A stretch of DNA of 64,000 nt from a virus: positions 1-64,000 of IMG/VR virus record IMGVR_UViG_3300029908_000007; one strand, given 5' to 3'. Shown in pieces: positions 21,125 to 50,210 of the stretch. The notes beneath the pieces are model-generated. The model ran no database searches, was not told where the DNA came from, and saw nothing but the letters and a program-made list of their open reading frames with translations. The stretch's first letter is position 1; the number at the start of each line of letters is the position of its first letter. A program made the translations under genes and the position numbers.

Positions 21125-21457
21125 CTAAACTATAATTATATCAGCGCCGCTATCGATTACTATTGAGCCAGCTAGAGAAATTTCTAAACTAGGTGCAATC
21201 CATGTTTCATCGGTATTAACGATCACATTACCTGTAACGCTTCTCATGGTAATAAAGCCCTGAGCTTCGATAGCCCCACTGTCTTGAACTGAAGTGCCGG
21301 GACTATTTTTAATAGTGGTACCCGTTGTATCAGCCCACCGCGTAATAGCGTCAATCGTAGTAGGCGAGATGCCAGTTACATTTCCAGATCCACTACTAGA
21401 AGTGTTAACCAGCTGTAATTCCCCAGTAAAATAGTTCAGTGCAACTTTGTAAGCCAT
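21125..21457 (-). CDS. Hypothetical virion protein
   Basis: MAYKVALNYFTGELQLV motif common in fibre-associated proteins. Confidence 0.6.
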   Translation of the reverse strand: MAYKVALNYFTGELQLVNTSSSGSGNVTGISPTTIDAITRWADTTGTTIKNSPGTSVQDSGAIEAQGFITMRSVTGNVIVNTDETWIAPSLEISLAGSIVIDSGADIIIV

Positions 21458-22152
21458 TATGTTCTCACCACACTAAGAAGATTAGCGGCCCCATCGTAAG
21501 TCAATGTGAGGGTAGCTACAGTCACCGTAGCTTGTTTATAGACCACAATTGTAGGGACGACTTGCCCACCAATAGTAGAATTAGTGAGATCGATTTCGTT
21601 GAACTTGTCGGGGACTAATTGAGCAAGATTAATAGTATTTATGCTACCGTCAGCGTTTACGTCGAGTTGATTCTTATCTGGAGCGGGCCCAACAATTCCT
21701 ACTTCTCCAATAGATATGGTTCCGTCAAACGTAACAGGTTTGGGGTTATTTGGACCGTAAGGATTTCCGTATGGGTCAATATCTATAACTCTATCAGCCA
21801 TGACAGGAGCTGGCAGATATACGGCGTTGTAATGGTCATCTCGTGGAATGGGAAAATTGTTTTGTTCGGGTGCAGAAATAGTCGCGTCATCAGCAACCAA
21901 ATAAGCACTAATATCGCTGTGATTTGTGGGAGAAGCCTTGAGACTATTATTATTTGGACCCACTATCAATTGGGTGGGGCTAAGAATGTTTTTGATTTGA
22001 AATAATGCTTGTTGGAGCGCGTTGGATTGGAGATTGATTTGCTGTTTTATATAGAAACCAGCGGTACTGTCAATGGTAACAACGCCCAAAGACGTACCAT
22101 TAGATGTGAAAGCCTGCGGGGGTACCGCAGCCAATTTCTGTTCAAAAGCCAT
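21457..22152 (-). CDS. Hypothetical virion protein (first gene of the fibre operon)
   Basis: ATG 22152 with AAGGA RBS; ends VATLTLTYD...L.SV.RT. Confidence 0.65.
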   Translation of the reverse strand: MAFEQKLAAVPPQAFTSNGTSLGVVTIDSTAGFYIKQQINLQSNALQQALFQIKNILSPTQLIVGPNNNSLKASPTNHSDISAYLVADDATISAPEQNNFPIPRDDHYNAVYLPAPVMADRVIDIDPYGNPYGPNNPKPVTFDGTISIGEVGIVGPAPDKNQLDVNADGSINTINLAQLVPDKFNEIDLTNSTIGGQVVPTIVVYKQATVTVATLTLTYDGAANLLSVVRT

Positions 22153-22375
22153 TTTATCCAATCCTTACATTAAGTTAGGAGTTAGTGCCACCACTAACAA
22201 TACTTTTAGCCCACGCTGAAAGCCCCTGTATTGCTACAGGGTATATGGTAAAGATTGGTTTGGAAGGTCACTATTGTGTAATTCTTAAAAATTCCAAACA
22301 CTTTTGTATACAAGATTAACACTCTACAATTAAAAAGTCAACATATTTTATATTATAGAGATAACTTATTGATAT

Positions 22376-24142
22376 TTAAGGTCTATTATTTGCTTCATTT
22401 GTTAATTGATTGGGATCGGCACAAATTTTTTGATATTCTGCGTCAGCCCGTGCTTCACTTCTTTCGAACTCATTGTCCCTAGGTGAAACCACAATCCCCC
22501 CTAGGGTACCTAACACCCCAGCAATGCTCACAGCGTTCACCAGACTCTCTTCCACGGCTTTGGTGGCATCAAACAACCCCAACTCTATGGCATCTCCATA
22601 CGTCTCATTTTCTACGTCGTAAACCAATTCAGGATTACCGATGAGCTTTGAAATGACTTCGGCGATTTCCTCGACGTTATGGCCAGCATTGTCTAGAAGC
22701 GTTTTGGGTAGACTCAAGAGAGCTTCCATGAGGACTTCTCTGGCGGGATCTCCTTCGGGAAGAGTTTCCGCGAGTTTAATAGCCATGTCAATGGCAATCC
22801 TGGTGCCACCAGGCAAACAGCCATATTTAATAGCTGACCGCATAGCCATAGTTGCGTCTTCGATACGATCGTGTTTTTCTTTGAGATCAGCTCCAGAGCC
22901 AGCAAAAACTGTGAACTTGGCGATACCACAGGTCAGTAGGGCTACTCTTTCTTGAAGCCAAAGCTTTTCAGCCTTGGTTTCAGAATTTGCAATCATTTTA
23001 GTTAAGTCACCAGCTCTAACCTCGACATTCATGGGTTCTGGGTCTCCAACTACCGTGGATCTAAACCGATAACTCTCGAAATATTCCATGCCGCCGCCGA
23101 GATCGTTGATATTAGCTCCAGACAGCTGATCTTTGATGCCGAATACCTTGGCTCCAGTGAAAGCGGCTAGATCGTATAAAAAAGCTTGTTGGGAATTGGT
23201 GAAGCCTCGCATAGGGGTCTTCAAGGGCATAATATTGATAGTGCTAGTGTTGACGAAATTGAACGTCAACGTGGTGAGTACGTTATCCGAAAATCCATGA
23301 GCAACTACGACGGTGTTTTTGAAATCTTCGTCGCCAGCCGCATATCTTTCGCCGACCTCGTTTAGAATAGGGGTGATTTGGATGAGATCGTTGATCATAC
23401 CATCGAATAAGATGAAGCGGGGTTTCTCAAGATAGGCCCTTTGGTTTCCCTGATCATTGATAAAAACATTGTTAAACTTTCCCAGATCTTCGAGTCCGGA
23501 ATAAATGGGCAATCCGTCGATTCTTTCAATTTTATAATCCTCGGGTCCTGATAATTCTTTGATAGTGATATGAGAGCCTTCGCCGAATCCAATGAGTTCG
23601 AAACATTCATAGACTTTATTGGCCATTTCAAGATCGCCGTTGGCACTAATCTTGCCTACCTGTCTGAGAAGGTCTTTGTTGTCTTCGCTGATCGTGATAG
23701 CACGGCTTTGAATATAGGGTACCAGAATGTCGGAGACCGCTTTTTTGATTTTACGAACGGCTTTCTGAGGACTATATTTGGGATTATTTTGGCAAAATTC
23801 GAAAAGATTTTTGATAAGTTGGTGGGCTAGGATAGTGGTGGTTGTGGTGCCGTCGCCCGCGCCTTCGCCGACGCGCTGAGCACTGTCTCTAGAGGTTTCG
23901 ATGATGACGTGATCGATGGAATCGATGGAACCAAGACTGGTGTAAACGCTGACGCCGTCTTTGCTGATGCGATTACTAATACCGGGAAGGTCGCTCTCAA
24001 TTAAAACGGTTTTTCCACCGGGCCCGAGGGTACCCCCAACTATGTCCGCGATTCTACTGGTAATATTGAGGACTTTCCGCTTAATAAGCTCGCGGTCGCT
24101 GATGAACATTTTTGGGGTGGTCTTGGCTTTACGATGGGACAT
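22376..24142 (-). CDS. groEL: Phage chaperonin GroEL (Cpn60)
   Basis: TLGPGG, KDGVSV, GDGTTT, ISANGD, EKHDRIEDA, LPGG motifs; no GGM tail. Confidence 0.93.
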   Translation of the reverse strand: MSHRKAKTTPKMFISDRELIKRKVLNITSRIADIVGGTLGPGGKTVLIESDLPGISNRISKDGVSVYTSLGSIDSIDHVIIETSRDSAQRVGEGAGDGTTTTTILAHQLIKNLFEFCQNNPKYSPQKAVRKIKKAVSDILVPYIQSRAITISEDNKDLLRQVGKISANGDLEMANKVYECFELIGFGEGSHITIKELSGPEDYKIERIDGLPIYSGLEDLGKFNNVFINDQGNQRAYLEKPRFILFDGMINDLIQITPILNEVGERYAAGDEDFKNTVVVAHGFSDNVLTTLTFNFVNTSTINIMPLKTPMRGFTNSQQAFLYDLAAFTGAKVFGIKDQLSGANINDLGGGMEYFESYRFRSTVVGDPEPMNVEVRAGDLTKMIANSETKAEKLWLQERVALLTCGIAKFTVFAGSGADLKEKHDRIEDATMAMRSAIKYGCLPGGTRIAIDMAIKLAETLPEGDPAREVLMEALLSLPKTLLDNAGHNVEEIAEVISKLIGNPELVYDVENETYGDAIELGLFDATKAVEESLVNAVSIAGVLGTLGGIVVSPRDNEFERSEARADAEYQKICADPNQLTNEANNRP

Positions 24143-24172: not shown

Positions 24173-25570
24173 TCATAAGTCTATGATCCATCGTTTCTTT
24201 CCACAATCCCAGATTCGAACGTAGCCAAGTGATTGAGCCATTTCTTTCTCAGTTTCTCCTATAGCACCCTTTTCAAGAAGATGCTTTTTTTGACAAGATT
24301 GTTTTGAAATTCTCTTATTTCGATATACATAGGAATAGTCAGGTTTTAAATTCTCTTCCATGACGAATCCCGTTTTTTCATAAACCCCTCCAATAGACCA
24401 ACGATTGTCGGACCAGGAAACAAGTTTTTTATAACTATTTTTCTTAGCATAATCTATAAGAGAAGTCAGCAATTTAGAAGAACCTCCGGAAACAGAAATT
24501 CCTCTTTTAAAAACCAATCTATTAAGCGCTAAAATCTCTCCATCTCCTTGACGATGATGATTGTTTCCCGTTACTAAACCGACTAGCTCTTCGTTATAGT
24601 ACAATCCAAAAGCTATTTTGATTGGAGCAGATCCTTGGATATGATGTTCGTCTAAAAAAACTCTAGCTACTTCCTTAGGAACTTCTTGAATTTGAGTCTT
24701 CCTTCCCATAATTTTTGTAGGATTTTTACCAATAGTAGACAGCAAAAAGTTTTTAATTTGATCCTTTCTTTCGGACCATTCGTCGCCAAAGATAGTTATC
24801 AAGCGTATTCCGTCATTTTGAGCCTTAATCATTTTATTAAAGTGGTACATTTCTTCTCTTGGAGTAGGACTTTCTTCGTTATGCCAGTATAGTCCACAAT
24901 ATTCTATGCCTATATTAAGTTCTGGTAAGTGTATGTCTATTTCGCTTCCACCAGCTCTATGTTTAAACTTATATTTTTCTACCTTCAAACCCAGACTTTC
25001 CATCCATTCTTTTATTTCTATTTCAAAACTAGAAGTTCTATTGCATCCAGAACAGTGCATGCACGAATTTTTAATGACGGTATGGATTTTACTAGTTTCT
25101 CTAGTATTTAGACATTTAAGGCATTTAATAATAAAAGATTTTGTTTTGCTTTGAAACCCAGAAACATACTCAAATCCTCTTTCGTTGAGCATTAGTTTTA
25201 TTTGCTCTAGCGCTTCTGGAGATCCAGCCTGTTCCTTATAAGCATTCCTCATATTTTCCATAGCAAGCGGATCTTTAGCTAATTTTGCTTTATAGGCATG
25301 CTTTTGACGTTCTTCTGGAGAAAGGAGGACGTTTTTTTCTTTATTAATTTCTTTTACTTTACTAAGTTTTACACCGCTTAACGCCACTATTTCTTTGTTG
25401 GTTTTACCTTGTTTTTTTAAGGAAACCACGAAATCAATCTGCTCTTCGGTATATTTTATCTTGCTTTTAGCAACGATAGCGGCAGTACACTCTTTCGAAC
25501 AAGAGTTTCCTCTGCCTATCCATTTATATTCAAATTCTTTACTGCAGTTTTTGCAATTCGCAACTTTCAT
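24173..25570 (-). CDS. Hef-like homing endonuclease (Vsr/PD-(D/E)xK domain plus GNAT/Mom-like C-terminal domain)
   Basis: EIDIHLPELNIGIEYCGLYWH; HIQG...LNRL...SWSDNRWS..VYEKTGF...IWDCG; own TTGACA-N17-TATGCT promoter. Confidence 0.8.
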   Translation of the reverse strand: MKVANCKNCSKEFEYKWIGRGNSCSKECTAAIVAKSKIKYTEEQIDFVVSLKKQGKTNKEIVALSGVKLSKVKEINKEKNVLLSPEERQKHAYKAKLAKDPLAMENMRNAYKEQAGSPEALEQIKLMLNERGFEYVSGFQSKTKSFIIKCLKCLNTRETSKIHTVIKNSCMHCSGCNRTSSFEIEIKEWMESLGLKVEKYKFKHRAGGSEIDIHLPELNIGIEYCGLYWHNEESPTPREEMYHFNKMIKAQNDGIRLITIFGDEWSERKDQIKNFLLSTIGKNPTKIMGRKTQIQEVPKEVARVFLDEHHIQGSAPIKIAFGLYYNEELVGLVTGNNHHRQGDGEILALNRLVFKRGISVSGGSSKLLTSLIDYAKKNSYKKLVSWSDNRWSIGGVYEKTGFVMEENLKPDYSYVYRNKRISKQSCQKKHLLEKGAIGETEKEMAQSLGYVRIWDCGKKRWIIDL

Positions 25571-25614
25571 ATCTAATAGCATATAATAAAGATTGCGGCT
25601 TGTCAACCACGAAA

Positions 25615-27090: not shown

Positions 27091-27930
27091 TTATTTGAGC
27101 AGGTGGCTAATACTGTTAATGTTTACCTGCCCATTGAGGTAAAACGAATTGATTGCGTCTCTATCGGACTTCTCAAGCTTGGACGGATCCTTCGCCATAA
27201 GAATTTTGTGAATCTCGCTCTTAGTAGGAGTCTTCACTTCAACTGGCGTTTCGCTTTTGGCGATAACGTCAAGGGAAGTAATTGCCTTACCTTGAGGAAC
27301 GGTTTTCTTAGCAAGAGCCGTCAAGAATTCCTTAATCGCTGCCTTTTCAGCTTTTTCAGCTGCAAGTTCGTTTTTAAGAAGTTCGACTTCTGTGTTTTCT
27401 GATTTTTCCATCTGCTCTCCATCTGCTTTGCTGGCGGGCGATTTAGCGCCTGGGGTCTTAGAAGGAGCATCGGCAGACATTTCTCCGCCGCTTTTGTGTC
27501 CTTCAGTACCTAGGTCTTTTGCCTTTTCGTGTTTTTCCATCTCGGCTGGTTTGGCTTCAGTTTTACCCATACACTTTTGAAGACAGCTATGATGAGCGCT
27601 TTGCTCTGCCGGAGACATTGAGCGATACATTTTGTCCATGTGCGCCATGTCTTCTTCGTCATAGTCATGACCCTGTTCATGGCCTTCTTTGGCTTCATGT
27701 TCGGGTTTTTCTTCGTGATGCTCTTCTTTGCCTTCTTCCTTAGCTTCTGGCTTCTCGCCTTCAGCAGGAGCGGCTTCTTTGTGTTCGGGCTTCTCTTCAT
27801 GCTTGTCTTCAGCTGGCTTTTCGCCATCTTCGGACTTCGCAAGAGTTGACTTTTTATTAGCCAATTCAGCAGTAAATGCTAGTTCCACATCGGCTACGAG
27901 TTTTGCAACGGCTTCTGGTGTGTACTTCAT
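27091..27930 (-). CDS. Capsid scaffold-like protein
   Basis: Acidic, His-rich, low-complexity; directly upstream of the capsid gene; multiple KSE motifs. Confidence 0.7.
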   Translation of the reverse strand: MKYTPEAVAKLVADVELAFTAELANKKSTLAKSEDGEKPAEDKHEEKPEHKEAAPAEGEKPEAKEEGKEEHHEEKPEHEAKEGHEQGHDYDEEDMAHMDKMYRSMSPAEQSAHHSCLQKCMGKTEAKPAEMEKHEKAKDLGTEGHKSGGEMSADAPSKTPGAKSPASKADGEQMEKSENTEVELLKNELAAEKAEKAAIKEFLTALAKKTVPQGKAITSLDVIAKSETPVEVKTPTKSEIHKILMAKDPSKLEKSDRDAINSFYLNGQVNINSISHLLK

Positions 27931-27971
27931 ATTTACTCCTTTCATTATTATATTGGTTAAAAAGTCTATAA

Positions 27972-32152: not shown

Positions 32153-33160
32153 ATGAGGAAGAATTGGGACTATCCAGACGAAATAATTCAACTAGCCCTG
32201 AAACACGGGAGTATGACGGATTTTATCAAAAATAGCGCCGGAGCATGGCAGGCCGCGAAACGCTTTGGCATAGACAAAAAGATCAAATCTCTTATGCCTG
32301 TAAAAAAGAGAGGCGCTTACACTTACGAAGAATTAAAAGAATTTGCTCTTTCGTGCGGAACTAGAGGAGAATTTAAAAAGAAATCTCCGTCTAAGTATAA
32401 CGCAGCTCGTGATATGGAAATTTTAGACGAAATTTGTTCTCACATGCCTCCTCCAAAAACGGAGGCTTACACGTATGAGGAATTAGAAGCTCTAGTAAAA
32501 ACTTGCTCTTCTAATCAGGAATTTAGAGATAAATATCCTGGGGCCTATACTGTTGCTTGTAGCAGAAAAGTGTTAAAAAAACTGTGTAAAGATTTTCCAG
32601 AAGCTAAAAATAAGAAACATACAAGAGAAGAAGTGGTAGCATTTTTTGGTAAAGATGGATACGAAGTAGTTAGCGAAAAATATGTAAACGCCAACACTCG
32701 TCTAGAAACCATTTGTCCGGCTGGCCACACTTATTTTGTTAGATATGGCGATTTCTATACTGGTTATAGATGCGCCGATTGCGTACTTAATAATGTCTCT
32801 AAAATGGAGTTGGAACTTCTAGAAGCTCTTAGAAAATACGTTCCAGAATTAAAAAGAAAAAAGTTTAAGGTTACCGTTCTGAATAAATCCCATATTAAAG
32901 CTTTTGAAGTTGATATGTATGACTCAGAAAAGAAAATTGGAATTGAATTTGATGGAGAATACTATCATTCTTTTGAGTACATGAGAAGCGATAAAAAGAA
33001 AAAGAAATGGTCCGATGAAGATATTCGAAATTATCATGAAATTAAGGATAGCGCTTTAATGGACTGTCACGGTATTTTGGTATTACACATTAAAGAAGAA
33101 GAGTGGAAAGTCGACAAACAAGCTTGTATCAACAAAGCTTTAAGGTTTCTAGGAGTATAA
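32153..33160 (+). CDS. PD-(D/E)xK/Vsr-like homing endonuclease with N-terminal helical repeats
   Basis: YTYEEL..A...EF...P..Y repeats, CPAGH/CADC, FEVDMY...IGIEFDGEYYH; own TTGACA promoter at 32115. Confidence 0.8.
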   Translation: MRKNWDYPDEIIQLALKHGSMTDFIKNSAGAWQAAKRFGIDKKIKSLMPVKKRGAYTYEELKEFALSCGTRGEFKKKSPSKYNAARDMEILDEICSHMPPPKTEAYTYEELEALVKTCSSNQEFRDKYPGAYTVACSRKVLKKLCKDFPEAKNKKHTREEVVAFFGKDGYEVVSEKYVNANTRLETICPAGHTYFVRYGDFYTGYRCADCVLNNVSKMELELLEALRKYVPELKRKKFKVTVLNKSHIKAFEVDMYDSEKKIGIEFDGEYYHSFEYMRSDKKKKKWSDEDIRNYHEIKDSALMDCHGILVLHIKEEEWKVDKQACINKALRFLGV

Positions 33161-34016: not shown

Positions 34017-35243
34017 ATGTCCTTGCTTAAGCATCTCCGCAAAGCTCTTACCGAAGAGTACTCGCTGAAGAAAGCTGAGGATCCCGTTGCCTACGCTAAG
34101 ACCGCTTCCACTGGTTTCATTCTTGCTCACCCTGTAAAGATCAACGGCGAAAGTCACAGAAAAGATAATGGTATCGATTACCATTCCACTGTAAAATTCT
34201 TCGATAAAGAAAAAGACAACCACGACGACGCCCACAAAACCGCTTCCCAATTAGACCTCACCCCACCCGATCCCAAAGAAACCCATATCGGCACCAATGT
34301 GATTAAAGATCGCATGGGTAACGACGTATACGCGATAACTTTGCATGGCAAGCACGCCGACAAGCTCAAAGAGAATCATAAAAAGTTCGATCACATGGGT
34401 CACAAAGAAAACTATGACTGGAACGCCCACATCAGTGTGCCTAAAGCCGTACACGATGAAATCAAAGCCAGCGGCCATAAGACCGCGCATGAAGCCGGAA
34501 TTGAATTCGGGCCAGCACAGCTGAAGCGTGGCAAAGAAGTTATTCATACTTATAAATTAAAAGAGCCGATGAAAAAGTCCGAAGGCGACGCTCCCTCAAC
34601 CGTCAAGCCTCCTGTCAAAATCAATCCCGAACACGGTAAGGCCATAGCAGATGCCTACGAGGGTATGAAACACGAGCCCAATAGCCCACACGTCAAAGCC
34701 GCCTACGATGCTTTGACCAACGAGACCGGCAAACAATTCAAAGACATCATGGGATCCGGACTTAAGATCTCGCAAATCAAACCCGGTCAAGCCAATCCCT
34801 ACAAAAGTTCCAAAGAAATGCATAACGACATCAAGAATAACAAACATCTGTGGTACTTCCCAACCGAACAGGGCTTTGGTAGTGGTGGGCAAGCTTCGGA
34901 CCACCCAATGTTGGGCCCCAGCGGTTTCAAACACGACGGCAAGTCTTTGGTACACAACGACATCTTTAGAATCGTTCACGACATCAACGGCCATCACGCC
35001 GGTGGAGAAACCGGATTTGGGCCAACCGGGGAGCACCAAGCCTATCTCACCCATAAGAAAATGTATAGCCCTCTAGCGGGAAAAGCATTGGCTACAGAAA
35101 CTATGGGACAAAATAATTGGGTGAATTTTGGTCCTCACGGAGAAAACAATAGAAAAAATCCAGCCCAGACAAAGTTTGCGGATCAAAAAGCGGGATTGTT
35201 ACCAGAACACATTACCAATGGAGACTGGCACAATGCATCATAA
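34017..35243 (+). CDS. Two-domain protein: Acb1-like 2H phosphodiesterase plus HDxxGH (zincin-like) domain
   Basis: YHSTV (H56) and AHISV (H138) 2H motifs; after MKKSE, NDIFRIVHDINGH...GEHQAY...TETMGQN. Confidence 0.7.
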   Translation: MSLLKHLRKALTEEYSLKKAEDPVAYAKTASTGFILAHPVKINGESHRKDNGIDYHSTVKFFDKEKDNHDDAHKTASQLDLTPPDPKETHIGTNVIKDRMGNDVYAITLHGKHADKLKENHKKFDHMGHKENYDWNAHISVPKAVHDEIKASGHKTAHEAGIEFGPAQLKRGKEVIHTYKLKEPMKKSEGDAPSTVKPPVKINPEHGKAIADAYEGMKHEPNSPHVKAAYDALTNETGKQFKDIMGSGLKISQIKPGQANPYKSSKEMHNDIKNNKHLWYFPTEQGFGSGGQASDHPMLGPSGFKHDGKSLVHNDIFRIVHDINGHHAGGETGFGPTGEHQAYLTHKKMYSPLAGKALATETMGQNNWVNFGPHGENNRKNPAQTKFADQKAGLLPEHITNGDWHNAS

Positions 35244-36426
35244 TCAGTGGAAGAAAGAATTTGAAGATTCCGTGGAACCATCTTTACGTAAAGCCGAAGA
35301 TCTCCATCTAGTCCACTATTCCCCCCAAGCCGGTCTCAAATACATCGACCCAAAGTTCAGCGGAACCGGCGTCGACAGCAGAACCAAAGGCCGCAGCACC
35401 GAACACCCACACTCCTTCTATTATAGGCATGGAACCGAACCCGAAGAAGTGGTAACCGGTAGAGCTGCTAACAAATACCACGTTAAAATCGGCGCCGACA
35501 AACCCATTTACGATATTGGTAAAGATCCTAAGGGCTTGGTCAGACAAGCCATCGAGGAAAATCAAGGTATTACTAATATGGATACCGTACACTCCAAAAT
35601 CAAAGAACACGGCTTCCATGGATTCCATAATAGCGGGCACCCCAGTCTTTCCAATGTAGTGGCTATGTATCACCCGCAGCCGGTTCAGAACGACAGCATG
35701 CAGAAATCCGAAATCCAACCCCTTCTAAAACCCTGGTCCAGCCAAGCTCAAGCCGCATGGGGTCATTCACCTGAAGGTAAAGCCGCGCTTGGTGGAGAAG
35801 CCGCTGTGAAGGAATGGGATAACGCTACCAAAGGCAAGCATCTGCCAAAGCATGTTAAAAAGAACGAATCCCTCGAAAAAGGCGCACTCAAAAATCTCCT
35901 AACCGCTGGAACCATGGGCGCTGCTTTGGCCTCCGCTGTTCCCTCAGAAGCCCACGCGCCCAATCACGAACCCCTACATCCCCAAGCCGGTGCTCACCCA
36001 ACTACGGGCTACGATCGAAAAAAGATGTTAGACGCTATTTCACAAGTTGAGAGTAGCGGCGGAAAAAATACCGTGCACAAGCCAACCTCCATGGGCCGAG
36101 CATATGGCCGATTTGCCGAAATGCCCGACATGATCCACGACACTATTCGCCTCAACCCCGATCTGAAACGCCAGCATCAAAAAGCCCTAAATCTTCAGGG
36201 TGACGATCTCCACCGTTACATGCAGGACAACCCAAAGTTAGAAGAGCAGATCGCCGATAAACATCTTTCCAGACTCGAACACCATTTCGGCCAGAATCCC
36301 AGCCTAATAGCGTTTTCTTGGAACCAAGGTGTCACAGGTACGAATCGCGCCTTAAATCAAAAACACGACATTTCCTCGCACCCATATGTGCAGAAATTTA
36401 AACACGCCTACGAAGGCAAGGAGTAA
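35233..36426 (+). CDS. Multidomain protein: ART-like domain, small PWSSQAQ module and lytic transglycosylase (SLT/lysozyme-like)
   Basis: GGAG RBS before ATG 35233; LVHYS...SFYY...GFHG; ISQVESSGG...AYG...SWNQG. Confidence 0.65.
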   Translation: MHHNQWKKEFEDSVEPSLRKAEDLHLVHYSPQAGLKYIDPKFSGTGVDSRTKGRSTEHPHSFYYRHGTEPEEVVTGRAANKYHVKIGADKPIYDIGKDPKGLVRQAIEENQGITNMDTVHSKIKEHGFHGFHNSGHPSLSNVVAMYHPQPVQNDSMQKSEIQPLLKPWSSQAQAAWGHSPEGKAALGGEAAVKEWDNATKGKHLPKHVKKNESLEKGALKNLLTAGTMGAALASAVPSEAHAPNHEPLHPQAGAHPTTGYDRKKMLDAISQVESSGGKNTVHKPTSMGRAYGRFAEMPDMIHDTIRLNPDLKRQHQKALNLQGDDLHRYMQDNPKLEEQIADKHLSRLEHHFGQNPSLIAFSWNQGVTGTNRALNQKHDISSHPYVQKFKHAYEGKE

Positions 36427-36921: not shown

Positions 36922-37269
36922 ATGTGCGTAGAACTTGTTAAGAGTGAAACCCAAGTCAGTTTTAAACCCGAACTTCCTCTAGAAGAGCAAATCTGTGGAT
37001 GCCAGGAAGCTATTATTGACTGCGAACCCGATTGCCCGAAGGTACTGAAGTTCTTGGCCGAAGTCGAAAAGGCCTGCCAATATGGGAAATCGTTGGGAAT
37101 CAAACTTAGCCTAGTTGATACACACAACTTCGGATTGTTTAAAAAAGTTAAGGATTTAAACCAAGCCATCGCTACTTCTGATATAATACATCAGATAGTT
37201 TTGTTTCACGACAAAGCCGATCGTAGACTAGAAGAGATTGCTAACATGTGTAGGAAACCGAATGAATAA
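36922..37269 (+). CDS. Hypothetical protein
   Basis: Operon packing. Confidence 0.6.
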   Translation: MCVELVKSETQVSFKPELPLEEQICGCQEAIIDCEPDCPKVLKFLAEVEKACQYGKSLGIKLSLVDTHNFGLFKKVKDLNQAIATSDIIHQIVLFHDKADRRLEEIANMCRKPNE

Positions 37270-38254
37270 AAAGCCCGAAGGCGAACAGATCGAAACTATT
37301 TCTTCTGAAGCACCTTATATTCAGGAATCTTTCGATTTAAATCGAATGGACGCTTTTGTAAAGAGTTTAGGTGTTCTCCTAACTCATTGGAAAGCCACGC
37401 CTTCACCAATTGGCTTAAACGATAAAGGCGACTATCGTAGAAATACCGGGCAAGTCGATGTTATGACTAGCAACGGCTATATATATAGTTTGGCAGGACT
37501 ATTCGTTGGTGTTATGACTGGAAACAGCAAAGACCAGCGGCGCCCTGTTGAAGGCGGATTGCTAGACTCAGCGCAGGCCAACCTAATACTACCCAGGTAT
37601 TACGAGCGCAAACAGACCAACGACGTGGCTTGCGGCGAAGACGGCTGTGTTGTTGATACCGATAAAAACGAAAGAATCTATCTCACCCCCGGAGATAGGT
37701 TATACTACGGTGATCCACAAGCCGACGACTTAGTGGTTGGCAAAGAATTGATGAATTTTGAGATCGACAAAGACACCGTTCCCATGTACCCCATTATTAA
37801 GATGGACGCACCTATCGTTGATTCTCGCGGAATTTCATATCAACAGAACATCGATTTCGTCATCACTAATTGCGGCGACATTCGGTGGATAGAAGGAAGG
37901 CCAAATCCGGGTATTGATCCAAGTACTGGAGAAGGCAGGACATTTTCGGCCCGCTACCTTTATAAAGCGTTTTACTACGTCACCTCTATCTTAAGAGAAG
38001 TTAGGATCACCAACACCAGCAAGTTTGGCGAGCCGAGCTGCGACAACCAGGGCCTGAGAAGCGCGGAACGCATGCCGATGTTTGTGCAACTAACCCGTGA
38101 ATACCTCTATCACAACATCAACAAGGGTTCGGAGACCAATAAAGCACCTCAAAAAGGTGCGGAACTCAGACAGACCGTTGAACCCCCTAGTACGGTTCCA
38201 ATACAGACTGGAATTGTTAGGGTAGAAACCACGGACCTCGATTTTGATGAATAA
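37262..38254 (+). CDS. Neck/head-closure-like structural protein
   Basis: Position among neck genes; Y...DF.I...G.I.W...P...FSARY pattern. Confidence 0.5.
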   Translation: MNKKPEGEQIETISSEAPYIQESFDLNRMDAFVKSLGVLLTHWKATPSPIGLNDKGDYRRNTGQVDVMTSNGYIYSLAGLFVGVMTGNSKDQRRPVEGGLLDSAQANLILPRYYERKQTNDVACGEDGCVVDTDKNERIYLTPGDRLYYGDPQADDLVVGKELMNFEIDKDTVPMYPIIKMDAPIVDSRGISYQQNIDFVITNCGDIRWIEGRPNPGIDPSTGEGRTFSARYLYKAFYYVTSILREVRITNTSKFGEPSCDNQGLRSAERMPMFVQLTREYLYHNINKGSETNKAPQKGAELRQTVEPPSTVPIQTGIVRVETTDLDFDE

Positions 38255-38811: not shown

Positions 38812-39738
38812 ATGAAACCGAACGCCGAGTACTTTCTCAGAAAGACACTTGGAGAAGACCTTAAAGAGTCGTTAGGCGAAGTCCTATCTAAGTCCGAAGT
38901 CTATAAGCAAGGTACTCGTACTATTACCGATACCGACGATCTTTTTCAAGGTCTTCAAATCGTTCCACGAGCACTACTAAGTCTTTTGGTTAGAGAGTTG
39001 TCTCCCATGCAAATCGGAGAAAATAAAGAAATTCGCATTCCAGGAAAAGAAGACACCACGGTTCAGGTTACCAAGCATGAGCGTGATTCCTATAGTGGTC
39101 AAATAATTCAAAACAACGTTAAAATCAACGACTTTATGCACCGCTCATTACCGGGTTTAGGTTTGGTTTTGATGACAATGCTAGAACTATACGACTTCGA
39201 AGATCTCAAAGAAACTCCTTCCGCCGACCACTCCCATATCAACAAGCTCATCGACGAACGCATGCATCTTCACTCCCTCATCAACCAAGTCGTAGATGGC
39301 AAGCTCATGCACCGCGACGCCGTTGAACAGCTTCTCATGACCAAGCTAAATCAGATGGGCACCGAACATAAAGAGATTAAAGAAGAACACAAAGAAATCA
39401 TGAAGCCCGAAGAACCTAAGGCAACAGTGGTTATTAACATCGAAACCGCTAAAAAACGTCGTCCGTTATCGGAATTCGTGGAAAATCGTAAAAAGAAACT
39501 TGCCAAGAAAGAGCATTTTATAGAAATGAAAAAATCCGAAGAAATTTCATGCCCGGATTGCGGGAACGTTATTTTTTCTGAGGGTGCTTACAGCGGCTGT
39601 ATTTGTTTTGGTGATAGCGATAAAAAGCTTTATGTTAAAAAATCTGAAAACGGCTATATGGTGCGCCCTGGTCGTGGGTGGGATGAAGAGAATCTGGAAA
39701 TGCTTTTGGAAGCTTTGAGGGGTAATAAAAATGGGTAG
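38812..39738 (+). CDS. Hypothetical protein with C-terminal zinc finger
   Basis: CPDC...CIC; LSKSE, MKKSE, VKKSE motifs. Confidence 0.7.
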   Translation: MKPNAEYFLRKTLGEDLKESLGEVLSKSEVYKQGTRTITDTDDLFQGLQIVPRALLSLLVRELSPMQIGENKEIRIPGKEDTTVQVTKHERDSYSGQIIQNNVKINDFMHRSLPGLGLVLMTMLELYDFEDLKETPSADHSHINKLIDERMHLHSLINQVVDGKLMHRDAVEQLLMTKLNQMGTEHKEIKEEHKEIMKPEEPKATVVINIETAKKRRPLSEFVENRKKKLAKKEHFIEMKKSEEISCPDCGNVIFSEGAYSGCICFGDSDKKLYVKKSENGYMVRPGRGWDEENLEMLLEALRGNKNG

Positions 39739-40480
39739 CGGCGGCAAGAACAGACTATCCGTTGAAGAAGTTGAGCGGAGGGTTCAACTTGCTCATGGTG
39801 GCATGGTTACAATGGTCGGATCTACCTACAAAGGTATGCTTAAAAAAGCATTGTTCGTCGACAAGGATCATGGGGAATGGTGGACAAAACCGGGTGACGT
39901 AACATTTAAGAAATCGGGCCATCCCTTAAGATCTTTAGAAAAATCAAGAAATACCTTTACGAGTAAATACGGTATTGGTATCATTAATGCCAGTCAAGTA
40001 GAAGAAATAAAAGAAAAAAAGAAAGCAACTACATTCAAAAACCATGGTGTTAAGCATCCTTCTCAGAGTAAGGCGATCAGAGAAAAGGCTCAAAACACGA
40101 CCCTAGAAAGGCATGGGGCTTTATTCCCGTATCAATGTTCAGACATTGCTCTCAAGGCCGCAAAAAAAGTAAACAATCCCAGTACAAAAATTCATTGGAA
40201 AACCGGAGAAGAACTATTTTGTCAAGGCGGATATGAAGCCAAAACTGTTGACTATCTTAATGCCAACCAAATTAACTTCGAATGGCAGCCCAAGACATTC
40301 AAAATGCCTGATGGTAAAACATATCGTCCTGACCTATACCTGTCTGACACAGGCATTTGGGTTGAAATAAAAGGCTGGATGAGAAAAGATGCTGAGTTAA
40401 AGTGGGACTGGCTCAAATCTGAATACCCTAACGCAGAACTTTGGAATCAAAAGAAACTAGAAGAAATGGGGATATTGTAA
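39731..40480 (+). CDS. PD-(D/E)xK homing endonuclease
   Basis: T..K.HGV.HPSQ repeats; YRPDLY...WVEIKG. Confidence 0.8.
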   Translation: MGSGGKNRLSVEEVERRVQLAHGGMVTMVGSTYKGMLKKALFVDKDHGEWWTKPGDVTFKKSGHPLRSLEKSRNTFTSKYGIGIINASQVEEIKEKKKATTFKNHGVKHPSQSKAIREKAQNTTLERHGALFPYQCSDIALKAAKKVNNPSTKIHWKTGEELFCQGGYEAKTVDYLNANQINFEWQPKTFKMPDGKTYRPDLYLSDTGIWVEIKGWMRKDAELKWDWLKSEYPNAELWNQKKLEEMGIL

Positions 40481-42150
40481 TGGATACTAATACGTCCCAG
40501 CACTTAGTCTTCGCCGGAGATGGCGATAACATTGGTCAAAGACACGCTCGGGCCATTTTGTCCGATGACATCGCTCAAGTAAGAGAAGTTTCGGAACATA
40601 TCACCGAAGGAAATAATTTTGTAAGAGACTTTGTTGAATCCCATGGGGGCGAATGGATTAGTGGCGGCGGCGACGAATTCTCATTTATGGCTCCTCCTGA
40701 GTTTGTGGAGCTTCTCGATCAGCTCCGAAAAGATTATGAATATATAGTTCAAGCCACACTATCCGTTGGATATGGAGATACTATCTCTCAAGCCGGTAAA
40801 GCACTTTTGGTTGCTAAAAGTCGCGGAAAAGATCAAGTCGTACAGTACGAAGATTCGATGGAAGACGAGCTTCAGCGTATCGGTGAAGAAGAAAATTCTC
40901 CCGACGCAGAAGCAAAAAAAATAAAAGGTGTACTTACTAGCGATAACGGCACGCAAGCACAAGAACCTGGAAACGCGCCTCCAGAATCTGACAAGGTATT
41001 GCCAGAAGGATCTGACGCTGCTGTTAACGAACCCACTTCTTGTGAGCCACCAGTTGAAGATAATAATAACGGATATGATTCGGGTTATAAAAATAGCAAT
41101 CCCACCACTAGAAAAGACTCTTATAGAGCCGAGGATATGACTCCTCCTACGATTGCAAAACCTAACCTAAAACAGCAAACGCCGGTCAAAGAAGCGGTTT
41201 CTACCGATATTCAAGAGACCAACCGTCAAATGAATGAAGAACCCGCCAATCCAGATGAAGAGGCTCCTATGATTGAAAAACCAGCACCAAAAGCATACCA
41301 TGGACAAGCTGAGGGCGACGAAGAAGTCCCACAAAGCAATGTTCCACAAAGTGAGGCTCAGCCTAGAGATAACGATAAACCCGGTGATCTTAAATATGGA
41401 CCCGGCGAAGGCGAACAGATTCAGCCCGAAGCCGATGTTCCCGTTGAAAACGCTACCACAGATGAAGCCGAAGCCACTGAAGACCAGGACATGGAAACCA
41501 AACATTGTGAGAGCTGTACTTGCGCAGATCACAAAGACGCAGAAACTACTTTGGACGAACACGTTGACAATGCTCAGGATTTTGAAAATACCTTAGATGA
41601 CGGCCAACCTGAAGGCGCGGAAGAAACTTTAGACCAGCACATCGATAATGCCACCGATATGCAAGATAACATGGATCAAGATGGAATTAGTCGTCCCGAA
41701 GACTATGACGATAAACGCGAAGACATGGGACTTAGCGAAGAAGACTCCGGCGAACCCGACCTAGACGGCGTTCTTCGCGATGGACTTGATGAGCACGCAG
41801 AAAATATCCAGAAAGAAAAAGTTGTCAACATGGTTGGAGAAGCCCTGGAAGGATTCAAGAGTCAGAAAGCAATTCTCGATAAAGCGAAGGAACAAGCGCC
41901 AGAATTGTACGCAAGTTGCATTTCCATGTTACGCGCTATGATCGAACTCTGCTCATTGGCTGGAATCAACGATGGTGAAGCCGAACAAGAAGTTAATGAA
42001 ATCGAAGGTCAGAGTACTGCTCCAGAAGAAACTCCTGGAGAAGAGGGTACGCCAGCTGAAGCCCCTGCTGAAAGCGCATGTCCTAGTTGTGGAAAACCTC
42101 ACGATGAAGCGGCTCCCCAGGAGGGGCCGCCTGGAGCCCCACAGCAGTAA
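40480..42150 (+). CDS. mCpol (minimal CRISPR polymerase/GGDEF-like nucleotide cyclase) domain fused to a long acidic region
   Basis: FAGDGDNIG...GGEWISGGGDEF...TLSVGYG...AGKALLVAKSRGK in the first ~120 aa; TAATG coupling to the upstream gene. Confidence 0.85.
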   Translation: MDTNTSQHLVFAGDGDNIGQRHARAILSDDIAQVREVSEHITEGNNFVRDFVESHGGEWISGGGDEFSFMAPPEFVELLDQLRKDYEYIVQATLSVGYGDTISQAGKALLVAKSRGKDQVVQYEDSMEDELQRIGEEENSPDAEAKKIKGVLTSDNGTQAQEPGNAPPESDKVLPEGSDAAVNEPTSCEPPVEDNNNGYDSGYKNSNPTTRKDSYRAEDMTPPTIAKPNLKQQTPVKEAVSTDIQETNRQMNEEPANPDEEAPMIEKPAPKAYHGQAEGDEEVPQSNVPQSEAQPRDNDKPGDLKYGPGEGEQIQPEADVPVENATTDEAEATEDQDMETKHCESCTCADHKDAETTLDEHVDNAQDFENTLDDGQPEGAEETLDQHIDNATDMQDNMDQDGISRPEDYDDKREDMGLSEEDSGEPDLDGVLRDGLDEHAENIQKEKVVNMVGEALEGFKSQKAILDKAKEQAPELYASCISMLRAMIELCSLAGINDGEAEQEVNEIEGQSTAPEETPGEEGTPAEAPAESACPSCGKPHDEAAPQEGPPGAPQQ

Positions 42151-42364
42151 GCCCGAAGCTCAGGCCGAGGGCGCCGTAGGATCGGTTAAGAAATTGCCGA
42201 CTAAACATTCTACACCACATATTCCCAAAGAGACCACTCCGGTTGGAGGCGTCAATGCTAAAGGCCAGAAACGCTATATCGATCCCTCTACGGGAAAAGA
42301 TGCTTACATCGACATGAAAACCCCTAGAGTTAAGGGACCAAGAGGTCTTCCCGTAAAAGGCTAG
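42104..42364 (+). CDS. Small basic protein overlapping the end of the mCpol gene (start uncertain)
   Basis: Fills the gap to 42366; +1 frame relative to 40480..42150; weak RBS. Confidence 0.5.
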   Translation: MKRLPRRGRLEPHSSKPEAQAEGAVGSVKKLPTKHSTPHIPKETTPVGGVNAKGQKRYIDPSTGKDAYIDMKTPRVKGPRGLPVKG

Positions 42365-42365: not shown

Positions 42366-43214
42366 ATGCTAAAATTCAATATTGACCCCAAAGATATATT
42401 GGCTGCATGTAAGGATTCCCAAGAAGAGGTTAAAAAAGCCTTAACTAAAGGTGTAAAAGATCTCGCAGTTGCGGCTCAAGGACATATTGTCGAACTTGCT
42501 AAAGGCGAACTGAGTCCGGCTTTGTTTAAGATCTTTAAGGGTGACCAAAAAGAACCCACACTTCGCATAGATACTATTGACGCCAATACCCATGTTATAA
42601 CCTTATCGGGCTCTGCTTACTGGATTGAAGAAGGCATTGAGCCGGGCAGTGATATGAAAACGGACAAGTGGCTTTTTAAATCTAAAAAGACCAGAACTTC
42701 TAAAGAAGGTTACCGCTATTTATTTGTACCATTTGAACATTCAGCACCTCCTAGCACCCAGACCGGCTATGAAAAAGGCCTAACCGACCGCGTTAAGTTC
42801 GAACTCAAGGCTAAAAACAAACAACGTAAACAGAATGGCCTATCTCAGATTCCTTGGATGGGGATAGAAAGAGATGAGCATGGTAAACCCAAAGAGGGTT
42901 TGATCCATGAATTTGATTTCAAAGGCACCAAAGCAAAAGATAGTTGGACATCTAATCCATTAGAACGTTTGAGGGTCTATCAAGCCGTTGAAAGAGATAA
43001 AGAAGGAAAAGCTAAGCTCACTAAAGGCGGCAAAGAAAAAGTAACCCGATCGTGGATGACGTTCCGTACTGCTTCCGAAAATCCAAAAAGTAAAGATAAG
43101 TTTATACACCCCGGTTATACCGGCAACAAGTTTATGGATAAAACTAAAGAATGGGCTGAAACCGAATTCTACGGCAAAATCCTACCTGACATTTTTGCGA
43201 AGTGGAAGGACTAA
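42366..43214 (+). CDS. Neck/tail-completion protein (HK97 gp10-like)
   Basis: AYWIEEG...DMK...RYLFVPF...FRT.S...FIHPG. Confidence 0.6.
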   Translation: MLKFNIDPKDILAACKDSQEEVKKALTKGVKDLAVAAQGHIVELAKGELSPALFKIFKGDQKEPTLRIDTIDANTHVITLSGSAYWIEEGIEPGSDMKTDKWLFKSKKTRTSKEGYRYLFVPFEHSAPPSTQTGYEKGLTDRVKFELKAKNKQRKQNGLSQIPWMGIERDEHGKPKEGLIHEFDFKGTKAKDSWTSNPLERLRVYQAVERDKEGKAKLTKGGKEKVTRSWMTFRTASENPKSKDKFIHPGYTGNKFMDKTKEWAETEFYGKILPDIFAKWKD

Positions 43215-43215
43215 T

Positions 43216-44229
43216 ATGGGTGGAATATTTCAAACCGACGCACTGCTTAAGACCATACTTGAAGAATCTCTGCAGGATGTTAAGAATAATCTGTGGCTTG
43301 TCGAATACATATTAGAAGATTTCACTCAAAACAAGTTCTTGCGCACAAAATTTGGACAAAAGCAAATCGCTGCTGCCAAAGAATTCTTTTTAAATAACAA
43401 TGTCAATGTTCAGTTACAGTTCTCCAAAGATAAAGAGAAATTCCCAGCTATCTTCTTAACGATGGGCAGTAGTAATGAATTTCAAGAAAATCGCACCATG
43501 GGCGACGTTGGAGAAAGAAATATCATTTTACAGCCGTCACAGGTTGGTTTAAAAATACCTTATGTGGTACCACCCTTTATTCCCACAAGTTTTGATGTCG
43601 CCACAGGAACTATCGGGGTCCCTGAAGGAATTGATCTCATGCCAGTTTCTCCAGGCATGGTCGTACTGAATCCTGAAAATGGTAACGGCTACCCAGTAAT
43701 CAGTATTAACGGTCAAAGTATTATGGTTCAAGCCGGGATCGAATTAGACGCGTCCCAACTCGGGGTTGTTCCTCAATATCGTTATTTCCAATCCCGTCTG
43801 GGACGTTCATTCTTCGAAGAAACCTGGGCCATGACTATTGCAACGAATGATCCTCAGACGTTGCTTTGGCTTCATAGTTTGGTAGTTTACACACTTCTCA
43901 GATATCGTGAGTTTTTTGAACACAATGGCTTTTTGGAAACCAAACTGAATAGTACCGACATTTTTACTCCCGAGTTTAGCAATGCCGGTGGCGAAGAAAT
44001 CTACTGTAGACAAGTTACCATGAGCGGTCGCGTAGTCCAGAGCTGGATTCGTGGTCTTCATAAGAAAATCGAATCCGTTCTTATTAGAGATATTAATCCT
44101 GCCGCTGTTACTTTAGCCGATCCTTCAGGCTATGTCGGCGGCATACGCATCGTTAGTAACCTAACAACTCCTCCTCTTCAACAGAATGATACGACCTATT
44201 TTACCGAAAATCCGGAAGACGAAGAGTAA
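43216..44229 (+). CDS. Tail terminator/completion-like protein
   Basis: Upstream of the sheath; FPAIFL motif; AAGGA RBS. Confidence 0.5.
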   Translation: MGGIFQTDALLKTILEESLQDVKNNLWLVEYILEDFTQNKFLRTKFGQKQIAAAKEFFLNNNVNVQLQFSKDKEKFPAIFLTMGSSNEFQENRTMGDVGERNIILQPSQVGLKIPYVVPPFIPTSFDVATGTIGVPEGIDLMPVSPGMVVLNPENGNGYPVISINGQSIMVQAGIELDASQLGVVPQYRYFQSRLGRSFFEETWAMTIATNDPQTLLWLHSLVVYTLLRYREFFEHNGFLETKLNSTDIFTPEFSNAGGEEIYCRQVTMSGRVVQSWIRGLHKKIESVLIRDINPAAVTLADPSGYVGGIRIVSNLTTPPLQQNDTTYFTENPEDEE

Positions 44230-45226: not shown

Positions 45227-45823
45227 ATGAAAACCTGTTCGAAGTGCGAAATCACAAAAGACCTTGAATGTTTTGGGAAAGCTCCCCAAAACAAAGACGG
45301 TCTTAATGGGCAATGCAAAGAGTGTAGAGCCGCTTATTTACTAGATTATAATGAAAAAAACAAAGAAAAGGTTATGGCGGGTCAAAGAAGATATTATAAA
45401 GAAAACAGGGTAGAGATTATAGAAGAAAAAAAGATCTATCGTGCTTTGAATTTAGAAACTATCAAACCCAAAACCAATGCTAGACTCAGGGCTAGAAGAA
45501 AAAATGATCCTCAATTTAAATTGGCAGCTAATTTAAGAGGACGTCTTAATATGGCTATTAAAAGAGGGTACAAGGCAGGTTCGGCGGTAGATGATTTGGG
45601 ATGTTCTGTAGAATCTTTTAAATCTTATATAGAAGGTCTACTCCAGCCGGGCATGACATGGGCTAACTATAGCCCAAGAGGATGGCATTTGGATCATAAA
45701 GTCCCCTTGGCTAGCTTTGATTTAACAGATAGAGAACAGTTTTTGAAGGCTTGTCATTACACCAATTTACAGCCTTTGTGGGCCGTAGACAATATTAAGA
45801 AAGGTGACAAAATTTATGGCTAA
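45227..45823 (+). CDS. HNH homing endonuclease
   Basis: CSKC...CKEC; GMTWANY..WHLDHKVP...HYTNLQPLWAVDN. Confidence 0.9.
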   Translation: MKTCSKCEITKDLECFGKAPQNKDGLNGQCKECRAAYLLDYNEKNKEKVMAGQRRYYKENRVEIIEEKKIYRALNLETIKPKTNARLRARRKNDPQFKLAANLRGRLNMAIKRGYKAGSAVDDLGCSVESFKSYIEGLLQPGMTWANYSPRGWHLDHKVPLASFDLTDREQFLKACHYTNLQPLWAVDNIKKGDKIYG

Positions 45824-48875: not shown

Positions 48876-50210
48876 ATGAATAGAACTTGGACTTTAGAAA
48901 AATTACAGAACGAAGCTATAAAATACACAAAAAGATCTGCTTTCCAAAAGGGAAGTAAGACGGCCTACAATACGGCTCAGCGCAAAAACCTACTGGACAT
49001 TATCTGTAAGCACATGGAAGCCTTTAACATCAATGGCGACAGAAATCCTAATTTTAAATGGTCCCTGGATATTTTAAAACAAGAAGCTCTGAAGTACAAT
49101 TCAAAAAGCGAATTTAAAGATAAAAATCCAAAAGCTTACCACGCAGCTTGGTACAGCGATGTGCTAGATGAAATCTGCTCCCATATGAAAAACCTTCTCC
49201 ATTATTGGACGGACGAAGAATTGGCCAAAGAAGCTTTAAAACATAAAAGCAGAACCAAATTTGAAGAAAAAAGCGGAAGTGCCTATCTAACCGCTTGTAG
49301 ACGAGGTCTTATAGATGAAATCTGCGTACATGCTCCAAAAAATGAGAAGAAAAGCTATGTACAAAAAGAAATATTTGATTTCATTAACTCTTTTTATCCT
49401 GATACCGTATACGATACTAGAAAAGTAATATCTCCGTTGGAACTAGATATTTACATACCATCATTGAAGCTAGCCATTGAATATTGTGGCCTATATTGGC
49501 ACTCAGAAGAATATAAAGAAAATAGCTACCATTATGATAAAATGAAATTTTGCAATGAAAAAGGTATAAGACTGATTACAATATTTGAAGATGAATGGCT
49601 AAAAAGGCAGGATCAAGTAAAGAACCTTCTTAAGTCGGTTATCAATAAAAATGAGTTCAAAATAATGGGAAGGAAAACTAAAATTAAAGAAGTGCCCAAA
49701 AAAGAAGCTAAAGAATTCTTAGAACAAAATCATATTCAAGGGTCTTCTGTATTTGAAATATCGTTTGGTTTGTATTATTTTAACGAACTACAAGCAGTAA
49801 TTACCGGCAACAAACATCATAGACAAGGCCATTCCGACACGCTAGTTTTAAATAGATTGGCTTTTAAGACCGATGTGTCTATTGCTGGAGGCCCTTCTAA
49901 ACTTTTCAATCGTTTAGTGAGCTATGCGAAAGAAAGGGGATACAAGAGGTTAATTTCCTGGTCCGACAATAGGTGGTCTGAAGGAAATGTTTACAAAAAG
50001 TTAGAATTTGAATTAACTGAAAATTTACCTGCCGACTATTCTTATTTTAGCAATCAGTCTAGAATATCCAAACAATCTTGTCAGAAAAAGATGTTAATTA
50101 AAAAAGGTGCTAAAGGAGATATGTCTATGACCGAAAAAGAATTGGCTTTAAGTCTAGGTCTATATAGAATTTATGACTGCGGTAAGAAACAGTGGTCCAT
50201 TAATTTATAG
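48876..50210 (+). CDS. Hef-like homing endonuclease with N-terminal helical repeats
   Basis: WT.E.L..EA.KY repeats; ELDIYIP...IEYCGLYWH; C-terminal half closely similar to 24173..25570. Confidence 0.82.
   Translation: MNRTWTLEKLQNEAIKYTKRSAFQKGSKTAYNTAQRKNLLDIICKHMEAFNINGDRNPNFKWSLDILKQEALKYNSKSEFKDKNPKAYHAAWYSDVLDEICSHMKNLLHYWTDEELAKEALKHKSRTKFEEKSGSAYLTACRRGLIDEICVHAPKNEKKSYVQKEIFDFINSFYPDTVYDTRKVISPLELDIYIPSLKLAIEYCGLYWHSEEYKENSYHYDKMKFCNEKGIRLITIFEDEWLKRQDQVKNLLKSVINKNEFKIMGRKTKIKEVPKKEAKEFLEQNHIQGSSVFEISFGLYYFNELQAVITGNKHHRQGHSDTLVLNRLAFKTDVSIAGGPSKLFNRLVSYAKERGYKRLISWSDNRWSEGNVYKKLEFELTENLPADYSYFSNQSRISKQSCQKKMLIKKGAKGDMSMTEKELALSLGLYRIYDCGKKQWSINL

Follow-up and report, generated by a model that had tools for sequence, protein, structure and literature searches.

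A phage-encoded mCpol-family domain on a conserved carrier protein of Mx1-like myophages

The mCpol enzymes have so far been characterized only as the bacterial half of Panoptes, for which they make a decoy signal. When that signal is lost, a phage is given away, and the trigger shown in the Panoptes papers is depletion of what mCpol makes (PMC12657218, PMC12657230, PMC13577387). The products of the Panoptes cyclase OptS are 2',3'-c-di-AMP and related dinucleotides for type I and cA3 for type II. In KpOptS, adenine is read by Ser30, a residue supplied by the neighboring protomer (PMC12657218). Here, we describe an mCpol-family protein, P0001, that is encoded by a phage. Its gene lies in a 64,000-nucleotide (nt) stretch of DNA, hereafter the window, which corresponds to positions 1 to 64,000 of IMG/VR record IMGVR_UViG_3300029908_000007. 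The virus record, whose first 64 kb make up the window, is 162,308 bp long, is rated 98% complete, and represents an uncultured Mx1-like myophage. The major head protein of this phage shares 53.5% identity with its counterpart in Myxococcus phage Mx1 (169.6 kb), the sole deposited relative.

The main open reading frame (ORF) of the gene covers 40480 to 42150 on the + strand and encodes 556 amino acids (aa), comprising an mCpol domain, an acidic tether, a helical domain, and a Pro/Glu-rich end. P0001 resembles OptS in its minimal palm fold, its two acidic catalytic positions, and its adenine-reading serine, and it may likewise pair into a symmetric dimer in which the protomers share the active site. 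It differs from OptS in that it is phage encoded, lies outside a bacterial defense island, and has no effector partner (CARF models were not run). The mCpol domain of P0001 is about 25% identical to OptS and is fused to about 430 to 500 further residues. It also keeps the full GGDE[GF] hairpin, which according to the Panoptes paper is nearly absent from OptS.

A second point of comparison is the polyvalent proteins of phages. GGDEF and RelA/SpoT domains occur in these proteins, and interference with host nucleotide signals has been proposed as their role (Iyer et al. 2017, PMC5512222). Like them, P0001 is a virion-module phage protein bearing a nucleotide-signal-making domain, and its relatives add enzyme modules (GNAT) with a recurrent motif at the module borders. 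Unlike them, P0001 has a single enzyme domain, which is an mCpol rather than a canonical GGDEF; its carrier is neither a MuF nor a portal protein, and its gene keeps a fixed position across a clade of roughly 160-kb phages. The Panoptes papers, their follow-ups, and two reviews make no mention of a phage-encoded mCpol, and neither do the note on the Mx1 genome and a survey of myxophages from 2026. What is new here is the mCpol domain as N-terminal cargo of a conserved carrier, the tail encoded in the +1 frame, and the accessory status of the cyclase.

The mCpol domain and its active site

The palm domain spans aa 11 to 123 (40510 to 40848, + strand), as placed by Pfam, the family profile, an AlphaFold2 (AF2) model, and Foldseek. 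The original prediction of an mCpol at this locus had quoted four motifs, and we found all of them in P0001: DGDNIG at aa 14 to 19, GGGDEF at aa 62 to 67, TLSVGYG at aa 93 to 99, and AGKALLVAKSRGK at aa 105 to 117. It had also proposed a search with the mCpol hidden Markov model (HMM). When this was run, the Pfam model PF18182 matched aa 11 to 123 across the whole profile (positions 2 to 114 of 114) at 59.2 bits, well above the curated cutoff of 26.4 and far beyond chance (E = 6e-16). A genome-wide search with the same model gave P0001 63.2 bits. The Pfam models for the Cas10 palm and for GGDEF scored far below mCpol, and PADLOC returned weak mCpol/Cas10 models only. No PHROG family was matched by any part of P0001, and by Pfam the protein has this one recognizable enzyme domain. 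A profile built from 118 homologous domains matched the OptS structures 9mnr and 9nwn (E = 3e-18).

Structure prediction led to the same family. The AF2 model of aa 1 to 135 had a predicted local distance difference test score (pLDDT) of 95. Its top six Foldseek matches in the PDB were all OptS/mCpol chains (KpOptS, 9mnr, 9pd0; 9nwn), with template modeling (TM) scores of 0.77 to 0.90 and root mean square deviations of 1.8 to 2.3 Å. GGDEF cyclases and Cas10 ranked behind them. The identity first proposed for the domain is thus backed by both sequence and predicted fold, and on these grounds the N terminus of P0001 is a genuine member of the mCpol family.

We then looked at the active site. Alignment to 9nwn placed D14 and D65 of P0001 on KpOptS Asp6 and Asp57. 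The former belongs to the first metal-binding acidic motif, D14-G-D16 (40519 to 40527, + strand), and the latter to the hairpin motif, G62-G-G-D65-E-F (40663 to 40680, + strand). Ser38 of P0001 aligns with KpOptS Ser30. These positions were compared across 239 aligned homologous domains that are otherwise 35 to 50% identical, a set that is biased against degenerate copies because it was gathered by similarity to the active domain, and Mx1 shows that such copies exist. D16, G64, D65, G97, and K113 were each kept in 239 of 239 domains, D14 and G116 in 238, Ser38 in 223, and E66 in 217 (Q in 20). K117 was also counted as invariant alongside K113, G116, and the metal-binding aspartates. Routine loss of the catalytic aspartates had been named beforehand as a sign of a purely structural role; in the collected set, they were kept in 238 or 239 of the 239 domains. 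Invariance of the aspartates, the Gly-rich hairpin, and K113/G116/K117 at this level of divergence would be surprising if catalysis were not under selection.

The domain was also modeled as a homodimer. The model scored 0.58, compared to 0.00 for the best control, a result to be read as likeness only because the OptS dimers are solved structures that the modeling program may have reproduced. Among proteins of known structure, 20 of the 30 that were solved as pairs of one chain attained a mark of 0.58, compared to 1 of the 23 that were solved as single chains. Between runs, contact agreement was at least 94% and the pLDDT of the partner was at least 88. In the model, residues 37-38 and 41-42 of one copy touch residues 60 to 64 of the other. 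We regard the mCpol domain of P0001 as quite probably an active cyclase.

A constant carrier and a dispensable cyclase

The mCpol domain is followed by an acidic, low-complexity tether at aa 129 to 427 (40864 to 41760, + strand), which contains 81 Asp and Glu residues against 23 Lys and Arg residues and has an isoelectric point (pI) of 4.05. Next comes a C-terminal three-helix domain at aa 428 to 512 (41761 to 42015, + strand), which was defined by an HMM and an AF2 model and lies outside known families. The region had been described as an acidic disordered stretch followed by a small helical domain. The acidity and the helical domain held up; the description as disordered needs a correction, as the acidic stretch contains short patches that are conserved among 36 close orthologues. 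Across the same orthologues, aa 430 to 510 are the best-conserved part of the protein. The C-terminal domain is predicted as three helices with a pLDDT of 86 to 97; it matched neither a Pfam family nor a PDB fold, and a usable Atlas neighbor was likewise lacking. P0001 also has two isolated CxxC groups, at aa 343 to 348 and aa 534 to 537.

This helical segment travels with mCpol. Its HMM hit 259 of the proteins collected; a strong mCpol match is present in 248 of these as well, and a search seeded with the C-terminal helical domain alone again returned mostly mCpol-bearing proteins. By word-indexed search, we found 129 relatives of similar length, nearly all with PF18182 and many on contigs of 155 to 177 kb. 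An exhaustive search with aa 1 to 135 gave 741 clusters (50% identity) at an E value of 1e-3 or lower and 514 at 1e-10 or lower. Among the best 150 clusters, most are proteins of 350 to 750 aa with mCpol at or near the N terminus.

The ORF had no counterpart at the DNA or protein level among 50,697 deposited phage records, in a search whose filtered tblastn also missed the Mx1 orthologue, which we located by synteny. A scan of the species-genome collection with P0001 as a single protein found nothing. The pattern-limited scan of its 185,579 species genomes with a small alignment as the query gave a single match, the 8-kb contig L054 (PLEQ01000023.1). Since only this one contig was returned, the long-form protein appears to be essentially viral. 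L054 is binned into a Deltaproteobacteria metagenome-assembled genome from a bog, which is a faint host hint for the clade.

The carrier has a fixed place in these genomes. Its gene order is 338-aa, 156-aa, and 308-aa genes, the carrier, a 282-aa gene, a 344-aa terminator-like gene, and the sheath gene. In the window, the conserved upstream neighbor is the 308-aa protein (38812 to 39738, + strand), which has LSKSE and MKKSE motifs, and the conserved downstream neighbors are the 282-aa protein and the 344-aa SP10_terminator-like protein (42366 to 44229, + strand). A survey of synteny in relatives had been suggested for this gene, and we found the order around the carrier to be identical in L003, L004, L005, L021, L029, and Mx1.

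The cyclase is less constant than its carrier. Mx1 has a positional orthologue, WNM70340.1 (OR576727.2, 33963 to 35369), that is homologous to P0001 (family HMM, 2e-22) in both its N-terminal and its C-terminal helical domains. In contrast to P0001, the Mx1 protein has lost its catalytic residues (D14S, the hairpin DE to AV, and K113Q) and is catalytically dead. Mx1 carries instead a separate, intact GGDEF protein of 243 aa (17173 to 17904) beside its prohead protease, and this protein may be a functional replacement for the dead mCpol. We considered the gene at 21457 to 22161 (- strand) as a counterpart of the Mx1 GGDEF gene; it has the same position and is unrelated in sequence, and we rejected it.

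Other relatives replace or extend the N-terminal part. In the subclade of L028, L029, and L032, Cys-x-Tyr-Cys repeats replace mCpol, and the tether motifs, the C domain, and synteny are kept. Carriers that begin with four to six such repeats are P0268, P0275, P0277, P0278, P0282, and P0288. One Cys-repeat relative has a genome of 170.6 kb that is rated 100% complete, and both mCpol and GGDEF are absent from all of it. Some relatives place GNAT or other modules before mCpol; P0104 and P0269, for example, combine GNAT with mCpol on the carrier. Because the carrier stays in its position between the neck and tail genes where mCpol is dead (Mx1) or replaced by Cys repeats, the cyclase is accessory. 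It is a dispensable, swappable head, and the carrier is the constant part.

A conserved basic tail in the +1 frame

The original prediction had the gene end with the stop at 42150. From that stop to the next gene there are 215 nt, and they encode a basic tail peptide in the +1 frame. The tail comprises 74 codons (42140 to 42364, + strand), has a pI of 10, and was recognized by conservation of its peptide. It is conserved (E of about 1e-30) in 49 loci. Of these, 17 encode it in frame and 21 encode it in the -1 frame; the 11 loci with a +1-frame tail include the window. Mx1 is one genome in which the tail is fused in frame. With this conserved +1-frame extension reaching 42364, the stop at 42150 is probably not the true end of the gene.

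A described gene with a similar layout is E. coli dnaX (tau/gamma). In both, a slippery run lies near the end of the 0 frame with a Shine-Dalgarno (SD)-like box about 10 nt upstream. The likeness extends to the heptamers, since many relatives of P0001 use the canonical A_AAA_AAG or C_CCA_AAG. Within the -1 group, C_CCA_AAG, C_CCA_AAA, and A_AAA_AAG are found a few codons ahead of the stop. P0001 differs from dnaX in that its tail is in the +1 frame, so that a -2 (or +1) move at CC_CCA_CAG is needed. It also has no significant downstream hairpin, and the shifted product is the longer form.

The candidate -2 slip site of P0001, CC_CCA_CAG, is at 42137 to 42144 (+ strand), and the SD-like box, AGGAGGGG, is at 42119 to 42126 (+ strand), 10 nt upstream of it. 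CC_CCA_CA[GA] was invariant in all nine distinct +1-frame loci. The AGGAG core of the box was kept in seven of the nine; L007 has GGAGAG, and L013 has AGGAG further upstream. Third codon positions are conserved at the SD-like box of the +1-frame loci. From these sequence patterns, we propose a -2 slip at CC_CCA_CAG as the probable route to the tail, which would give a long form of about 628 aa. After such a move, the Pro tRNA in the P site and the Gln tRNA in the A site would still pair at the first two positions of their codons.

The CCC_C run at 42115 was also considered, as the site of a +1 slip, and was rejected as unlikely because the run is not conserved in the +1-frame loci. Some points count against the -2 slip as well. 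The region after the slip site (42142 to 42225) folds no better than shuffled sequences (z = -1.0), and -2 slippage is rare in bacteria. An ATG at 42104 could serve as an independent start, and in this genome the tail may be translated from there.

Genomic setting and possible roles

P0001 had been placed inside a virion gene cluster, and its surroundings agree with this. Around the mCpol gene, we found a tail fiber, a weak lytic-transglycosylase match, the SP10_terminator (Pfam) protein, the tail sheath, and a tube-like virion protein; the opposite strand encodes the head protein, a GroEL-like chaperonin, and a 1241-aa orthologue of the Mx1 "prohead protease." Searches for Cap15_CD_rec (the 2TM-beta receptor), SAVED, SMODS, and GGDEF domains found none in the whole 162-kb record (CARF models were not run), in keeping with the earlier remark that no cognate effector lies nearby. 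Without a Cap15-type receptor, SAVED, SMODS, or GGDEF in the record, the locus is not a Panoptes system, and its synthase is an orphan. The hallmarks of Panoptes, a partner effector in the operon and a bacterial location, often beside CBASS, are likewise missing, as the neighbors belong to the virion module and the record is that of a virus.

Several other genes in this region deserve mention. An inserted homing-endonuclease-like ORF (39731 to 40480, + strand; PHROG endonuclease matches) occupies the exact junction of the 308-aa gene with the mCpol gene. At its start it overlaps the end of the 308-aa gene by 8 nt, and at its other end the stop shares one base with the ATG of P0001 (TAATG). This ORF is absent at the junction in L021, L029, and Mx1, and L004 has a partial look-alike. 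The structural block holds at least three more homing or HNH/endonuclease VII-like ORFs (32153 to 33160, 45227 to 45823, and 48876 to 50210, + strand). The interval from the 1241-aa protease-like gene to the head protein gene contains the GroEL-like chaperonin (PHROG 5725, E = 7e-75) and a 477-aa protein whose C-terminal domain is Mom/GNAT-like (22376 to 24142 and 24173 to 25606, - strand). The ORF at 34017 to 35243 was flagged as Acb1-like and has no Pfam or PDB sequence match; lacking sequence support for that label, we set aside a "writer plus eraser" pairing with it.

A short motif, [LMI]xK[ASG]E, recurs in this phage. It occurs 25 times in the predicted proteome versus 8.6 +/- 3.2 times in shuffles, an enrichment of about threefold, and 19 of the 25 copies are in the structural block at 27 to 58 kb (27091 to 58448, both strands). 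Three sites are in a scaffold-like ORF, and others are in both conserved neighbors of the mCpol gene. Where another module precedes mCpol in relatives, the motif lies 2 to 20 residues ahead of the mCpol start in 11 of 26, and it falls within the mCpol domain in 0 of 248 proteins. This distribution suggests a putative head-protease cleavage site that joins cargo modules. As for the ORFs concerned, the one with three copies (27091 to 27945, - strand) is a 284-aa Glu/Lys/His-rich ORF directly upstream of the major head protein and looks like a scaffolding protein. A 432-aa protein (35128 to 36426, + strand) has two motif sites and a weak SLT match at its C terminus (20.4 bits, just below the cutoff) and is possibly an ejected cell-wall enzyme. 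Along with the position of the mCpol gene, the motif in its neighbors and at the module borders of relatives is a hint of packaging. P0001 itself has no MuF or portal domain, and its association with the phage particle has about an even chance of being real.

Our preferred reading is that P0001 would be a late virion-module protein of an Mx1-like myophage in two parts, a cyclase head and a carrier. The head (aa 1 to 125) would be a catalytically competent mCpol, a nucleotide cyclase of the Cas10-palm/GGDEF type. Probably, two copies would pair head to head as in OptS, with the base-reading helix (Ser38) of one protomer completing the active site of the other. The likely product would be an adenine-containing cyclic di- or oligonucleotide made from nucleoside triphosphates. 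The carrier would consist of the acidic tether of about 300 aa, the three-helix domain, and, in the fraction of molecules made by slippage, the 74-aa basic tail. Of the two parts, the carrier would be ancestral and is probably attached to the particle, and the cyclase would be an exchangeable accessory head that tampers with host cyclic-nucleotide signaling or immunity. We lean modestly toward this reading, in which a conserved carrier of the virion module, produced in two lengths, bears the cyclase as accessory cargo.

Other observations weigh against it. For neither the C domain nor the basic tail was there a match to a known family or fold of virion proteins. The neighbors at 37238 to 38254, 42366 to 43214, and 43195 to 44229 have no solved relatives, so a "neck/head" label is based on position only. 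P0001 has no copy of [LMI]xK[ASG]E, and its processing or head targeting is therefore not indicated. The dead copy in Mx1 and the bias of the 239-domain set toward active copies bear on the cyclase itself.

What the cyclase would do for the phage can be explained in several ways. Because product depletion is the trigger of Panoptes, an extra supply of the nucleotide would silence the system. A phage enzyme could in this way replace the inhibitory nucleotide of the host and keep effectors shut despite sponges or phosphodiesterases. P0001 has the same fold and family as OptS and an intact active site, and the phage has none of the effectors searched for. However, the gene lies in the late structural block, and a silencer that is not injected would have to be made early. 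The product must also match the ligand of the host effector, no sponge or Acb1 was verified in the genome, and the phage family keeps the GGDE[GF] hairpin, unlike OptS, so product chemistry may differ. On balance, we consider decoy supply against Panoptes unlikely. Late-gene timing speaks for a second explanation, a product that mimics a housekeeping messenger of the c-di-GMP/c-di-AMP type (acting on pili, motility, or the envelope) or that activates cyclic-nucleotide-gated effectors of the host late, for exclusion of rival phages or timing of cell death. Other ways in which phages raise host c-di-GMP are known, e.g., the Yip peptide (PMC11461919), and such roles have been proposed for the GGDEF domains of polyvalent proteins (Iyer 2017, PMC5512222). 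Mx1 pairs its dead mCpol with a separate canonical GGDEF protein in the head module, which suggests that nucleotide signaling as such is valued. The nearest relatives of the domain are nonetheless immune-type mCpols and not housekeeping GGDEF proteins, and we judge such manipulation of host signaling to be just as unlikely as decoy supply.

Two further explanations dispense with a cyclic product. The palm fold is common to Thg1 and polymerases, Dpo4 was among the weak fold matches, and the domain is tethered to a virion-module protein. These facts would suit a nucleotidyltransferase that makes linear oligonucleotides, primes synthesis, or nucleotidylates a protein or DNA end in packaging or ejection. 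Yet the best fold matches are cyclases by a wide margin, and the predicted symmetric dimer sets two active sites face to face, as in a cyclase, and we find this activity very doubtful. Alternatively, the mCpol fold could be a building block of the carrier with no catalysis. The Mx1 orthologue, which keeps its place and C domain without catalytic residues, and a relative that replaces the mCpol domain altogether both speak for this. The invariance of the metal-binding aspartates, the Gly-rich hairpin, and K113/G116/K117 at 35 to 50% identity speaks against it, and a purely structural role seems to us marginally more doubtful again.

Returning to an active cyclase on its carrier, the boldest version is that an entire clade of large phages from soil and fresh water would load a working mCpol into the particle on its tethered carrier and deliver it to the cell along with the genome, so that its decoy nucleotide would flood the cell and silence Panoptes-type guards or other nucleotide-gated effectors within seconds of infection. 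We hold this to be improbable, a little more so than decoy supply in general.

Since an intact mCpol is a fixed-position gene in hundreds of large-phage sequence clusters, viruses appear also to write this class of signal, beyond erasing or sponging it. The mCpol carrier is a candidate countermeasure to guard-type immunity or a case of viral use of host nucleotide signaling. Its active copies, the dead copy in the culturable Mx1, and the relatives without mCpol form a natural comparison set. The -1, -2/+1, and fused arrangements of one tail make it a probably recoded gene family. If injection were true, the injected mCpol would be the first countermeasure to "inverted" immune signaling, and the two-length frameshift would set the copy number of the anchored enzyme.

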